DNA of 64,000 nucleotides, from the NCBI GenBank assembly GCA_964388715.1, contig CAYMBN010000001.1, positions 76,962 to 140,961 of the forward strand. The letters are read 5' to 3'. The position numbers were made by a program. Below, piece after piece: positions 6,001 to 9,000 of the stretch (its first letter is position 1; every line of letters begins with the position of its first letter). The stretch is from an uncultured Methanosarcinales archaeon. GTDB taxonomy: Archaea > Nanobdellota > Nanobdellia > Woesearchaeales > CAYMBN01.

Positions 6001-9000
6001 CGGTACAATTATCTTGATTTTTAATTAATTGATATCCACTTTCTTTCATTAAATCATCTATAAATGCCATTTTAAATCAACTCAGCTTTCTTAATTAAAT
6101 ATTTGCCTGTGCAATTGTTTTCCATTATCTTTTCTGCTTCGAGGATGTTTATTCTTTTCTTGAAAAAAGGTGCGTTTAGAACTAAAGATTCAAACTCTCC
6201 TCCTTCACCAGCAATGTTTATCTTGTTTTTCTTGTTGAGTTTGACCATTTTGTTTATGAAATCGTGATTTATGGTTGTTCCGACGTCGTTTTCATCTAAT
6301 CCTTCTGCTGCGATTGAAGAAATGATAACTTCAAAACCTTTGTCAACGATTTCTCGCATTTCTGTTTCTTGATTCATGTGCCAGAGTGGTGAGAATACTT
6401 TTAGGTTTAGTGATTCGCAGACTTTTTCAATTCTTTCACGCTGGTAATTTGAGTAGAGTGCGCCGGTAATAACACCTTGAATATTGAATTGTTTTTTTGC
6501 TTTTTCAAGTGCTTTTTTTAGGTCGTCAAGTTCTTTCTCCTTCTCACCTTTTGTATCTTGTTCCAATAGTGGAATACCTATTGCTTGTGCTTGAAGTTGA
6601 ACAAGGTTAATGTTAGGAGTATGATACATGTATGAGTCTGGATTTTTACTTTTTATGCTGATCAAACATACAACTTGGTTGATCATTTTAGACATTGCAT
6701 AGATTGAATCTTTGCCAGAGCTGATCAGAGCAGCAAGTTTTAGATTAAGTTGTTCAAGATAATCTTTTTTGAATTTGAAGCCATTTTGTTTAGCAAGTTT
6801 TTCAATTGCTTTGTCAAACCTGCTTCCATACTGAGCAGCCCTTTTTTTTCTGAATGCAATATCTTTTGGAATACCAATGTTTAGTGCAACTTGTCTAAGA
6901 ATATATTTTTTTATGTTGTCTTTTATTTTTTCTTTGCCAGGGATTGTTAAAGCAAAGTCAACGAGTTCTTTGTCGAGGAAAGGTGTGAGAAAGGTAAGTT
7001 TTTCGTGTTTTGCAATAAGATTGTCTCTTTTTAGGTCACCTTGTTGCATAAGTTCTAGTCCTTTTTTACATTCTTGGTTAATATCTTTTGAGAGTTCATG
7101 TCTTTGATAGCCTGCAAAGATTTCTTCACTTCCTAGACCAGAGAAAAGATATTTTACATTATCTTTTTTAGCTTGTTGTGTAACTGTTAACATGACACTG
7201 CCAACACCGACGTGGACAACAGGTCTTTCTATTTCTCCTAGTATTTGTGCTGTTTTTTTTATTATTTTTTCTGCTTGATCAAGATTGATGTTGCATATTT
7301 TTAATTTAAATCCAAGTTCTTTTGCAACCTTTTTACTCCACATAAGATCTTCTGCATCTAAGTCAACAGCAGCAGTGTAACATGTGAAGTTGATATTGAG
7401 TTTTTTTAGAATGAATGCAATGATTGTTGAATCAATACCTCCTGAGAATAGAACACCTATTTTTTCATTCTTAATTCTATCTTTAACAGCTTTCTCAAGT
7501 AATTGGTATAGTTTTTCTTGCATAATTGACTAGAAAGTATGGTTTTAGTTATAAGGTTTTCGACAATTGTATCATTTATTACTTTGGGTCTTTTTTCTTA
7601 ATAAAACAATAACATTTATAAACAAAATAAAATAAATTACTATTATCCCTACCTAGCTCAATGGCTAGAGCGTTCGGCTGTACTGTTTCATACGGGGTCA
7701 AAGATGCGCTTTAGGACCTTATGCACAAAGCAAGGGATGATAAAGAGCCAGCCAACACCGAAAGAGAAATCCGGTAGAGGTTCCTGGTTCGAGTCCGGGG
7801 GTGGGGATTAAGGAGTAGGGAAATTTTTTCCTACTTCTTTTATTATTCTTTTTCTTTGAGAATAAGTTGTGTTTGGTGGACAATATCCTAATTTTTGCCA
7901 AACTTTTATTTTTGTTATATGTTTAGGGTTTGAAAAACCTATTTGATTTAACCATTTTTTTAAGTTTCTTTTACCATTAATTTCCAGACGGTATAGAGTA
8001 AAAATACCAAAATTATTACTCTTTTTAACTTTTTGTTTATAATAAGTAATACTTACTCTATCAAGTATTTTTTGAATATCCTTAATTATTCTTTCTGAGG
8101 AAAACTCAGCTACAATTCGAGGATATGAGTGTGTTTTTCTATCTCCTTTTTTAAAACTCATACTGAAATCAGTATCTGCAAGCCCTTTAAGAAATCTTAA
8201 TGATAATAATTGATTATTAATTATATTACTTGGTATAAATGCCTTGTCTGATTTCTTACCAACTATCACACCAATATTTTCAAAGAATTCCAATAGTTTT
8301 TTAGAATGAGTGTATAATCTTGCATATTCTTCTTCGTGTTTTAGAGTAAGATTGTGATTAAAACATTTATAAAATAACGAAGTAATATACTTGAAATAAT
8401 CAACTTCTTCTATTTTATCCCCAACAATTTCAATTCTATAACTGGTTCTTTTAGATGATATATACCTACTTAAATGACCATCTCCAGTAATTATCCCACA
8501 AATTTCAGCGACTTCTGGTGTTATATTTAAATTCTTAAACATTTTTAATCATCCTATCTGATCTTGCTGAAAATGTTTAAGCTCTTTATGTTTAAATATA
8601 TTGCCCGTACTTGTCCAGTGGGGAGTGAGGCATCTTTCTAAGCAGGGATATTTTATTTTTCTCCTCTAAAAGTGGTGAAAATCTATTGATGTCAATAATA
8701 CGCTTTAAAAGCACAACCTTTATAAATAGAGGCAATTTCCTTGCAGTAATGGTAAAAAACGACCATCTTTCTAGGCTTAAATGACTAAATTAACTATAGT
8801 CTATGCTCTTGAAAGAGAATGTTTTTTCCAGAAAATATCAGGATGAAGCCCTGGTAGTGTAGTGGTTATCATGAAGCCCTGTCGAGACATAGTATGTCGC
8901 AAAAAGGCTTCGACTCGGGTTCAACTAAGTCAAAAAAAACTTTGAAAGTCCCGGCCAGGGCGTTTCATGCTCATGACTAGGACGTTTACGTTCATGACTT

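Follow-up and report, generated by a model that had tools for sequence, protein, structure and literature searches.

A free-standing LAGLIDADG endonuclease gene abutting tRNA-Tyr in a Woesearchaeales genome: a likely tRNA-docked homing cassette

Introduction

Free-standing ('intron-less') homing endonucleases are exemplified in the T-even phages by SegB of the T4 tRNA gene region. In a cyanophage, the free-standing endonuclease F-CphI and an endonuclease-less group I intron of psbA are said to form a pair that spreads by collaborative homing. The free-standing phage enzyme MobE of T4 cuts an endonuclease-free genome nearby and is copied in by repair together with flanking DNA, and mobE and the nrdB intron are described as an example of homing in trans (PMC2790892). 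The mORFs of fungal mitochondria, found in atp6 of Allomyces and in atp6, atp9, cox2 and nad3 of Glomus, consist of a LAGLIDADG or GIY-YIG gene set into the terminal part of a host gene, for which they carry a replacement end, while the native end persists as a duplicate downstream (PMC3630166). A tRNA-Thr locus of Caldiarchaeum subterraneum combines an extra tRNA intron with a tRNA fragment and an inserted element of 1.8 kb that encodes a DNA recombinase, a case that was read as intron gain via a mobile element (Sugahara et al., 2012; PMC3293823).

There is no settled account of how introns arrive in archaeal tRNA genes, above all at non-canonical positions. One account states that the route of their arrival 'remains open', and homing endonucleases are unmentioned in the available part of its text (10.64898/2026.10.13.758758). 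The first-pass annotation of the genome considered here (G000) had proposed that two LAGLIDADG genes, g00083 and g00182, encode homing endonucleases whose target and landing site is a tRNA gene, a type of mobile element not described for archaea; no paper describing tRNA-docked homing endonucleases was found in the literature searched. The analysis below covers a window of 64 kb around g00083, the whole genome and homologous loci across the order. It indicates that g00083 is likely a selfish, free-standing LAGLIDADG homing endonuclease gene on a cassette of ~0.8–1.0 kb that comprises only the gene and its promoter, inserted exactly at the tRNA-Tyr 3' end between tRNA-Tyr and tRNA-Asp; its cleavage, target position, immunity and regulation are what we infer.

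Like the free-standing endonucleases of T-even phages, g00083 lies between genes and has its own expression signals. Those enzymes, however, are of the GIY-YIG or HNH type and reside in phages, whereas the g00083 family is of the LAGLIDADG type and resides in cellular archaeal chromosomes, where, unlike its phage counterparts, it is fixed to a tRNA gene end (flush with it, a few nt away or overlapping it) and entire clades are specialised on a single tRNA species. In comparison with the mORFs, whose hosts are protein genes, the substitute ends carried here are tRNA 3' ends, and the endonuclease is antisense, with no in-frame fusion. The Caldiarchaeum element differs in turn, as the homing endonuclease is the sole gene here and the arrangement recurs across the order with clade-specific tRNA targets. 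These cassettes would add a cellular archaeal counterpart to the phage free-standing endonucleases and the mitochondrial mORFs, and, since they dock on specific tRNAs together with small introns, they may help to explain the interrupted tRNA genes of archaea and offer a directly testable mechanism for them. The family would also supply a set of natural LAGLIDADG scaffolds that differ in their tRNA-gene specificity.

The tRNA-Tyr Junction

Many tRNA genes of these genomes carry T-arm introns, which is why they are under-called by ARAGORN. Run without introns, the program reports no tRNA in the 64-kb window, where Rfam at gathering scores has no match either; with introns allowed it places the tRNA of the junction at contig positions 84607-84769, while mistyping some tRNAs and missing multi-intron ones. 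As the standard callers are inadequate, a custom detector based on acceptor closure and the T loop was written; the closure test is noisy by itself, and part of the tRNA calling was done by eye. The features of the junction, in window coordinates, are as follows.

7647..7807, plus strand: tRNA-Tyr(GUA) gene, the docking site, 161 nt (sequence reading, ARAGORN with introns, acceptor-closure/T-loop detector)
7808..8542, minus strand: g00083, free-standing single-chain LAGLIDADG endonuclease gene, 244 aa (ORF list, Pfam)
8592..8602, minus strand: TATA-like box of the putative g00083 promoter, ~50 nt upstream of the ATG (consensus match)
8603..8631, minus strand: upstream promoter element with CACTGGACA core (genome copies, upstream regions of homologues)
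8632..8847, no strand: non-coding DNA of ~215 nt from the g00083 promoter to tRNA-Asp, with a second TATA-like box near 8720
8848..8962, plus strand: tRNA-Asp(GUC) gene, interrupted twice, past the anticodon loop and in the T loop (sequence reading)
9012..9131, plus strand: tRNA-Lys(UUU) gene, flank, interrupted in the D loop and past the anticodon (sequence reading, detector)

The tRNA-Tyr gene is complete in sequence, with a 7-bp acceptor closure (CCCTACC/GGTGGGG), a canonical T arm, a non-coding insert of approximately 85 nt past the anticodon, and a discriminator A at 7807. The stop codon of g00083, read as TTA on the plus strand, occupies 7808-7810, so that the zero spacing noted at first pass is borne out, and the pattern has proved stronger than initially stated. 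The same gap of 0 is confirmed for g00182 (C1 168308-168973, minus strand) and the multi-intron tRNA at C1 168134-168307 (plus strand). An earlier count of 11 in 1253 genes with such endings is matched by the independent detector, according to which 10 of 1341 raw ORFs (at least 100 aa) terminate in, or at most 30 nt from, any of the 34 tRNA-like calls, which include false ones. Both endonuclease genes are again included, the other eight being RpoD-, TrmB-, methyltransferase-like and similar ORFs, and not endonucleases.

The ORF of g00083 is antisense to the complete tRNA-Tyr and outside it, beyond the discriminator; it does not lie inside a bulge-helix-bulge intron of a host RNA gene, as an enzyme of the I-DmoI type would. 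Its position outside any intron or intein, together with a promoter of its own recognised by consensus only, is that of a free-standing endonuclease of the phage Seg/Mob type. A ribosome-binding-like GGATGAT stands between the TATA-like box and the ATG. The left border of the insertion is somewhere within 8632..8847, an interval with no ORF in the ORF list and no Rfam match, and the right-hand flank is formed by tRNA-Asp(GUC), which is missed by ARAGORN. The tRNA-Lys(UUU) beyond it is mistyped by the same program as Asn and is followed by rpoH at 9170.

The Endonuclease

Two LAGLIDADG motifs, GIITGDGHL and LKGLADTDFS, are present in g00083, each ending in a catalytic acidic residue, and across 25 aligned sequences D21, K97, D125, G16, G20, G22 and G120 are invariant. 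The Pfam family LAGLIDADG_3 matches at 33.5 bits (E 5e-8; cut-off 22.5). For g00182, which had been thought to lack a Pfam match above the cut-off, the same family scores 31.7 bits against 22.5, and that statement has to be withdrawn. The AlphaFold model of g00083 (pLDDT 94, pTM 0.90) is composed of two alpha-beta-beta-alpha-beta-beta-alpha halves, and in Foldseek it retrieves the TliVMA intein endonuclease (5e-12), then PI-PfuI, I-Tsp061I and I-DmoI (to 1e-8), while a PDB search by sequence gives marginal matches only (E 0.05-0.1). Judged by its sequence and predicted fold, g00083 is an intact double-motif LAGLIDADG endonuclease. It has its fold and catalytic motifs in common with the intron- or intein-borne enzymes I-DmoI, I-Tsp061I, PI-PfuI and TliVMA, which are likewise archaeal and target conserved RNA or protein genes; unlike these, it is not embedded in an intron or intein, and an additional, conserved tail of two helices (IGFSNPKH...W.K.G.CPP) follows at its C-terminus.

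Retention of the catalytic and C-terminal residues and strong purifying selection would also suit a LAGLIDADG protein domesticated by the host, whether as a repair or recombination nuclease of a RadA/Hef regulon, as a helper in tRNA-intron processing or as a DNA-binding regulator, tRNA adjacency then stemming from joint expression or from the formation of 3' ends rather than from mobility. Among the Foldseek matches, WhiA and the bI3 maturase fit such a role, as does a third, weakly LAGLIDADG-like gene of this genome, on contig C2, which has a winged-helix tail and adjoins no tRNA. The regulatory signals and the distribution of the family bear on the same alternative and are considered with it below.

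Promoter and Regulation

The CACTGGACA core ahead of g00083 occupies 8612-8620 on the minus strand, within CCTCACTCCCCACTGGACAAGTACGGGC. Elements of this type are present in five to nine copies in the genome, each followed by a TATA box, and CACTGGACA, exact or one base off, was recognised by eye upstream of 26 of 29 homologues; by consensus, a TATA box and the upstream motif stand 45-55 nt before the ATG in most of them. A tyrosine recombinase gene of this genome and the third LAGLIDADG-like gene have the same promoter motif, and in a genome of another family CACTGGACA is found ahead of RadA, Hef and RadC. The pattern suggests that the element at 8603..8631 is a putative operator common to recombination and repair genes, and because CACTGGACA is common to the cassette, RadA and Hef, expression of the cassette is probably tied to such a regulon. 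A conserved operator held in common with RadA, Hef, RadC and the tyrosine recombinase also speaks for the host-function alternative. In G025, a genome without the endonuclease, exact CACTGGACA occurs once versus 4 control matches, and the status of the motif as part of a host regulon is therefore drawn from G000 and G016 only. CACTGGACA is a candidate cis-element of a recombination/repair regulon in small-genome archaea.

Two other identities of the motif, which in this genome precedes g00182 as well as g00083, were considered and rejected: 5' halves of split tRNAs and fragments of an initiator-tRNA 3' end. The motif occupies a promoter-proximal position before many unrelated genes, and in relatives it takes the form of plain CACTGGACA.

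Docking and tRNA Specificity Across the Order

Among 401 genomes of the order, 191 contain homologues of g00083, each with 1-6 matches. The first-pass observation that their stop codons fall at tRNA genes holds in a larger sample: the script places a tRNA end within 60 nt of the stop codon in 53 of 70 loci, a number that rises to 64 of 70 when closure-only and by-eye calls are included. No tRNA was found at the start-codon end in any of 67 loci, again as first reported. Gene and tRNA are convergent in 44 of the 70 loci and co-directional in 20, with 6 lacking a tRNA. The g00182 family docks in at least 26 of 30 loci by eye, mostly at tRNA-Ile(GAU).

Endonuclease clades match both the identity of the adjoining tRNA (Tyr, Thr, Asn, initiator Met, Ile) and the orientation. 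On a tree of 70 proteins, tRNA type requires 15 changes versus 42-53 in 300 shuffles, and orientation 10 versus 19-26, although labels shared through kinship overstate the independence of both comparisons. The Tyr, Thr, Asn and initiator-Met clades and two co-directional ones are supported by SH-aLRT values of 98-100. The endonuclease ORF often reads on into antisense tRNA sequence up to a chance stop.

Empty Sites, Remnants and Flanking Repeats

Within one genus, the junction of adk and tRNA-Thr exists in three states: G149 carries a cassette of 905 bp, inserted without target duplication; the congeneric G025 and G219 are empty; and G318 retains only a 30-aa remnant of the endonuclease. Degenerate copies are also found elsewhere, with in-frame stops in 13 of 150 among the g00083-family matches listed and fragmented copies in the g00182 family. 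Polymorphism for presence and absence at one site, combined with degenerate copies, is the pattern by which a homing element is recognised. For the Tyr-Asp junction the one empty-site comparator is G054, a distant relative with conserved synteny (tRNA-Tyr, tRNA-Asp, tRNA-Lys, rpoH), in which 8 nt separate tRNA-Tyr from tRNA-Asp versus 1040 nt in this window; no close relative was available for the g00083 locus, all 60 relatives sampled being from other families. A comparison of G171 with its congeners is not clean, as G071 has ~1.5 kb at the equivalent place.

These states weigh against the host-function alternative. Occurrence in about half of the genomes and the conservation of residues and operator favour it, but the gene varies between present, absent and remnant within one genus, some copies bear in-frame stops or are fragmented, each clade is tied to a different tRNA gene, and the open frame often runs into antisense tRNA until a chance stop; duplicated tRNA ends at some cassettes weigh in the same direction, and we regard a domesticated protein as unlikely.

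Direct repeats of a tRNA end flank the cassette in 10 of 100 loci (g00182 and nine others, with the duplicate end across from the endonuclease); they measure 16-31 nt and enclose 776-859 bp, and two are identical (26/26 and 22/22). Substitute tRNA 3' ends are seen at G000 locus 2, L017, L087, L088, L112 and L211, whereas in L028 and L210 it is tRNA 5' ends that are repeated, as far as the D loop. At g00083 itself no flanking repeat rises above chance, so that, unlike in the mORFs, a duplicate end is lacking there. Near and far tRNA copies have T-stems that differ from each other on both strands, which is what conversion from a foreign donor would produce.

A repeated tRNA 3' end is reminiscent of an att site, and the endonuclease might be carried by, or left over from, a larger integrative element, for instance a virus or plasmid, brought to tRNA genes by a tyrosine integrase; integration into archaeal tRNA genes is already known to occur and to leave tRNA fragments (Sugahara et al., 2012; PMC3293823), and the tyrosine recombinase gene of this genome has the promoter motif of the cassette. 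The DNA between repeats or missing from empty sites, however, amounts to 776-905 bp and holds the endonuclease gene and promoter only, with no integrase gene within the inserts. The gene directly abuts the tRNA in 64 of 70 loci, the G149 insertion made no target duplication, and repeats of 5' ends that stop in the D loop are not the usual att geometry, all of which renders such an origin highly improbable. A history of ancient vertical linkage, in which endonuclease genes stood beside tRNAs since the ancestor of the order and were then inherited or lost without further mobility, would be consistent with the age of the clades (identity to g00083 in the alignment ~30-60%) and with the Tyr-[cassette]-Asp-Lys order common to G000 and G051, members of different families. 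Against it, the identical repeats indicate recent insertions, empty and filled alleles coexist in one genus, and the near/far T-stem differences fit conversion from a foreign donor; we consider this history very unlikely.

A mobile homing cassette with a tRNA gene as its landing site, as originally proposed, is thereby favoured by the conserved catalytic residues, the confident fold and the clade specificity, as well as by the empty, remnant and filled sites of one genus, the empty Tyr-Asp junction and the flanking repeats of tRNA ends. The tRNA gene would also be the site cut, to judge from where the displaced tRNA fragments begin. In the mechanism that we propose, the enzyme would recognise a tRNA locus free of the cassette, either by the rear portion of the tRNA gene or by the gene's end together with the trailer, and would cut it there. 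RadA-dependent repair might then copy the cassette from a bearing copy, with the tRNA gene serving as homology arm on the stop-codon side. Where homology is missing on the other side, as in transfer between species, closure would be untidy and the old tRNA end of the recipient would be left as a short direct repeat. Each sister clade has specialised in a single tRNA gene and a single orientation.

T-Arm Introns and Collaborative Homing

The suggestion that these endonucleases drive the spread of introns in tRNA genes has support for part of the family. The link with short T-arm introns is strong for the initiator tRNA: 14 of 15 initiator tRNAs that adjoin an endonuclease have a T-arm intron, and among 30 unselected initiator-tRNA genes the endonuclease accompanies 3 of 6 with a T-arm intron versus 0 of 24 without, a comparison whose independence is overstated by kinship. 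These introns are short (~24 nt). For tRNA-Asn the link is suggested by small numbers that agree with it. The displaced, far tRNA fragments begin at positions 53/54 or 57-60 of the T loop, which are intron sites; this hints indirectly that the cut may fall there in intron-free alleles.

A short bulge-helix-bulge intron of the T arm would accompany the endonuclease in the clades of initiator Met and Asn, and this intron would either split the target and confer immunity, as in collaborative homing, or hitch-hike in the co-conversion tract. The likeness to the psbA/F-CphI and mobE/nrdB pairs consists in a free-standing endonuclease beside a gene with an endonuclease-less intron, with which, in the initiator-Met clade and on small numbers in the Asn clade, it appears to be co-inherited. 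It differs in that the introns of collaborative homing are self-splicing group I introns, whereas those considered here are protein-spliced bulge-helix-bulge introns of ~24 nt in tRNA T arms.

A joint reading is put forward tentatively, as a possibility that falls somewhat short of being probable. Free-standing LAGLIDADG enzymes and short bulge-helix-bulge introns may be partners in collaborative homing at archaeal tRNA genes: a T loop (or D loop) that lacks the intron would be cut by the enzyme, and repair would bring in the intron together with the cassette and a new tRNA end, sometimes stranding the old end as a fragment. The cassettes would moreover be co-switched with the host RadA/Hef regulon through the CACTGGACA operator. 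If true, this would provide a concrete route, at the level of DNA, for the gain of non-canonical introns in archaeal tRNA genes and for the shedding of fragments from them.

The likeness to collaborative homing does not extend to the Thr clade, which docks on tRNAs without T-arm introns and in which immunity must therefore differ. Nor is the intron link established for the tRNA-Tyr of the window, because tRNA-Tyr alleles without the endonuclease also have an anticodon-loop intron. The tRNA-Tyr genes that adjoin an endonuclease are longer, at 161-179 nt, versus mostly 122-133 nt for those without one.

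The tRNA-Tyr/endonuclease junction

In the window, the LAGLIDADG homing endonuclease gene g00083 ends exactly where a tRNA gene ends, its stop codon directly following the discriminator base. The same arrangement is found at g00182, the second such gene of the contig, so that the zero spacing described in the first-pass annotation is borne out at both loci.

Window 7647–7807, + strand: tRNA-Tyr(GUA) gene, read from the sequence, discriminator A at 7807
Window 7808–8542, − strand: g00083 from the ORF list, 244 aa, stop codon 7808–7810
Window 8848–8962: tRNA-Asp gene
Window 9012–9131: tRNA-Lys gene
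Window 9170: rpoH
C1 168134–168307, + strand: tRNA gene next to g00182
C1 168308–168973, − strand: g00182, outside the window, gap of zero to the tRNA

The tRNA-Tyr gene has the acceptor CCCTACC/GGTGGGG, the T arm CCTGG TTCGAGT CCGGG, an anticodon stem with CTGTA and a legible D arm, and its sequence reads with an insert of ~85 nt 3′ of the anticodon. ARAGORN with introns allowed places it at contig positions 84607–84769; without introns, neither ARAGORN nor Rfam at gathering scores returned a tRNA across the whole 64-kb window, because its tRNA genes are heavily interrupted. Past the g00083 start lie the promoter, ~215 nt of DNA, tRNA-Asp, tRNA-Lys and rpoH, in this order. tRNA-Asp, missed by ARAGORN, is interrupted twice, in the T loop and 3′ of the anticodon loop; tRNA-Lys, which ARAGORN assigns to the wrong type, is interrupted 3′ of the anticodon and in the D loop. 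Their counterparts in G054, a genome of another family, have no inserts and measure 73–74 nt.

Within the genome under study (G000), a custom detector made 34 tRNA-like calls, some of them false; of 1341 raw ORFs of at least 100 aa, 10 have their end inside such a call or no more than 30 nt away. Both endonuclease genes are among the ten, and the remaining eight are not endonucleases.

The enzyme

g00083 matches Pfam LAGLIDADG_3 with E 5e-8 (33.5 bits, cut-off 22.5). g00182 had been recorded as having no Pfam match over the cut-off, which is incorrect, the same profile scoring 31.7 bits. Residues G16, G20, D21, G22, K97, G120 and D125 are invariant in a 25-member family alignment, a set that takes in the acidic residue of each LAGLIDADG motif. 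The AlphaFold model of g00083 from this alignment (pLDDT 94, pTM 0.90) is predicted to fold into two alpha-beta-beta-alpha-beta-beta-alpha halves with two C-terminal helices. A PDB search with the sequence alone gave marginal matches only; Foldseek with the model placed TliVMA first (5e-12), then PI-PfuI, I-Tsp061I and I-DmoI, which are archaeal intein and intron LAGLIDADG enzymes.

A third gene of G000 (C2 66578–67732, + strand; positions 844–1998 of locus L003) encodes a protein of 384 aa that matches LAGLIDADG_3 weakly (16 bits, short of the cut-off) and has a winged-helix domain at its C-terminal end, for which HTH_24 passes its cut-off. It has the motif and TATA promoter of the endonuclease genes and no tRNA at its stop codon, and may be a domesticated LAGLIDADG regulator.

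Docking on tRNA genes across the order

Matches to g00083 (E ≤1e-3) occur in 191 of 401 Woesearchaeales genomes, G000 counted, with 1–6 in each. Seventy loci were examined, consisting of the 30 best (L004–L033, L004 being G000 itself) and rows 31–70 of the match table (L084–L123); alignment A1 also includes one of them, L029 (G120). The genome tallies for both endonuclease families and for the initiator tRNA take in genomes flagged unpublished, on which no claim solely depends.

A scripted detector was set to accept a tRNA only with perfect 7-bp acceptor closure including at least four G-C pairs, with U8 and with a T-loop motif. By this detector 53 of 70 loci have a tRNA edge at most 60 nt from the stop codon, or a tRNA overlapping it, and 0 of 67 have one at the start codon, in agreement with the earlier claims for the two ends of the gene. 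Random positions in the same loci match a tRNA in 12% of draws, a rate inflated because these loci hold the counted tRNAs themselves. Ten further loci have the acceptor closure but no canonical T loop, and L116 has a T arm by eye, giving 64 of 70 loci altogether; no tRNA was found at the stop codon in L085, L093, L095, L105, L111 and L117. The tRNA is convergent in 44 loci, with its 3′ end at the stop codon, and co-directional in 20, with its 5′ end there. Stop codons are frequently supplied by the tRNA itself, as a TGA of the antisense T loop or a TAG from U8-A9-G10, so the reading frame simply runs into tRNA sequence. The g00182 family, found in 41 of 401 genomes, has a tRNA at the stop codon in at least 26 of 30 loci by eye, and close g00182 homologues adjoin tRNA-Ile(GAU).

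In a small sister pair of endonucleases, L093 (G253:C2) and L105 (G258:C13), the usual layout is reversed, the full tRNA lying on the side of the promoter. L105 also has a 20-nt copy of the tRNA 3′ end beyond the stop codon.

Clade specificity

A quick IQ-TREE phylogeny of the 70 proteins (LG+G4) separates, with SH-aLRT of 98–100, a Tyr-like clade (four rows: G000, G171, G051 and G066), Thr(UGU) and Asn-like clades (seven rows each), an initiator Met clade (17 rows, 14 with a tRNA at the stop codon and three without) and two co-directional clades (seven and eight rows). These names are working labels, because the tRNAs were typed by eye from acceptor, discriminator and anticodon context, ARAGORN types being unreliable here. 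On this tree tRNA type changes 15 times against 42–53 in 300 label shuffles, and orientation 10 times against 19–26, contrasts which overstate independence because kin share labels. The match of endonuclease clades to tRNA type and orientation is nevertheless plain.

Probable mobility

Filled and empty sites are found within a single genus, g26. The G149 cassette, 905 bp made up of the ORF and 146 nt upstream, sits exactly between the adk start codon and the tRNA-Thr 3′ end, with no target duplication at this junction, while in two congeners these genes lie close together, 10 nt apart in G025 (a single contig, 99% complete) and ~70 nt apart in G219. G318 retains a 30-aa C-terminal remnant adjoining the tRNA. 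The distance from tRNA-Tyr to tRNA-Asp is 1040 nt in G000 and 8 nt in G054, a distant comparator in which tRNA-Lys and rpoH follow; the genomes compared include no close relative of G000. Purely vertical linkage of endonuclease and tRNA, a reading to be set beside the filled tRNA-Tyr/tRNA-Asp arrangement common to G000 and G051, is less likely given the empty sites in g26. A host function of the endonuclease is also the less likely reading: in-frame stops occur in 13 of the 150 g00083 matches listed, and in the g00182 family several copies are broken into fragments.

Direct repeats of the tRNA end flank the endonuclease in 10 of 100 loci (the g00182 locus, L017, L028, L087, L088, L096, L105, L112, L210 and L211), enclosing 776–859 bp. 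The g00182 repeat spans 27–29 nt, trailer counted; those of L088 (26/26) and L211 (22/22) are identical, and the g00083 locus has no flanking tRNA-end repeat. In convergent and 5′-end repeat cases the complete tRNA is next to the stop codon and the fragment next to the promoter, L105, with no full tRNA at the stop, being the exception. For Caldiarchaeum, PMC3293823 describes a recombinase element accompanied by intron gain and a tRNA fragment, and the endonuclease might likewise be cargo of an integrase element; beside enclosed DNA of this size, this is less likely.

The core of these loci is probably a mobile element, namely a free-standing homing endonuclease at a tRNA gene. On the simplest account the tRNA gene would serve as both target and homology arm; substitute gene ends, the mORF pattern, would arise where the far side has no homology, and collaborative or trans homing with T-arm introns may operate in some clades. 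Both have known parallels, mORFs in fungal mitochondria (according to PMC3630166) and collaborative and trans homing in phages (according to PMC2790892 and, reportedly, PMC6083498). A literature search, mostly outside subscription journals, returned no account of archaeal tRNA genes with a free-standing LAGLIDADG gene beside them, and such docking is seemingly unpublished. In phages, SegB has a role in the T4 tRNA region.

In G025, adk starts 10 nt past tRNA-Thr on the same strand, without room for its own promoter, and G149 has a cassette-borne TATA box ~30 nt before adk (L010 ~1230–1440; cf. L070, G025 79440–79640); the cassette thus seems to give the displaced adk a substitute promoter. In the tRNA-Thr(UGU) genes of L010, L021 and L070 the T loop reads TGCAACT, G replacing the near-universal U55, both with and without an endonuclease neighbour.

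tRNA introns

That the endonucleases drive the spread of tRNA introns, as previously proposed, can be held only tentatively, the initiator tRNAs and, with less weight, the Asn tRNAs speaking for it, the Thr and Tyr tRNAs not. A T-arm insert is present in 14 of 15 initiator tRNAs adjoining an endonuclease, ten at ~53/54 and four at ~59/60, the two positions tracking endonuclease subclades. These inserts have common ends and a hairpin, and two 3-nt bulges flanking a 4-bp helix can be made out by eye. In an unselected sample of 30 initiator-tRNA genes, picked by anticodon arm from 121 genomes, an endonuclease adjoins three of six genes with the insert and none of 24 without (exact test ~0.005, hand calculation), the contig 3′ of the tRNA being short in two of the 24 (33 nt in L142, 345 nt in L127) and the three positive genes being loci also in the endonuclease-anchored set. 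The anticodon-arm pattern matches once per genome, so the interrupted gene is presumably the working copy. L134 (G032), L137 (G067) and L146 (G076) carry the same kinds of insert with no detectable endonuclease neighbour, as would be expected if the endonuclease were lost and the intron survived.

Among the flanking repeats, the far fragment starts exactly at the insert position in L087, L088 and L112, and inside the T loop in the g00182 locus and L017. The T stems of the near and far copies in L087 differ on both strands, the outcome to be expected if conversion by a foreign donor had extended into the 5′ exon.

Most endonuclease-linked tRNA-Asn genes have a displaced T stem, which is absent from the three endonuclease-free genes sampled, whereas the Thr clade docks mostly on tRNAs with a canonical T arm. 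Nearly all sampled tRNA-Tyr genes with resolved acceptor closure exceed mature tRNA length, so an intron is usual in tRNA-Tyr; linked alleles are longer, at 161–179 nt against mostly 122–133 nt. Conserved blocks occur in the long inserts of endonuclease-linked tRNA-Tyr from four genomes of different families, window 7683–7770 and the inserts of L005, L006 and L122 having blocks in common (...GATGA...CAGCyrAyACCGAAAG). Because box C- and box D-like letters occur there, these inserts might code for a guide RNA.

The promoter element

The element CACTGGACA, or a one-off variant, is found by eye in 1–3 copies upstream of 26 of 29 homologues with upstream sequence, 12–17 nt before the TATA box and ~50 nt before the ATG. 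The copy of g00083 lies at window 8603–8631 (− strand); other G000 sites are at C4 ~21084, C8 ~16608, C12 ~81, C21 ~628, C2 ~66498, C1 ~215768 and C1 ~222674. Genes behind this layout in G000 are g00083, g00182, the LAGLIDADG-like winged-helix protein, a small gene then RadA, a Hef-type helicase-nuclease, a tyrosine recombinase and a PIN protein. The endonuclease-free genome G025 contains the exact motif once against four control matches, and its congener G149 has the variant CCACAGGACA. G016, a genome of another family, has 13 exact copies of the 9-mer and one of the reversed control, and motif and TATA box precede RadA, a Hef-type helicase (its frame read without a nuclease domain), RadC, a radical-SAM/HhH protein and an RNase H-like protein (the G016 loci with the element being L225, L227, L232, L233 and L221). 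This co-occurrence makes CACTGGACA a candidate operator for a regulon of recombination and repair genes, carried by the cassettes too, with regulon-type placement seen in two families of the order.
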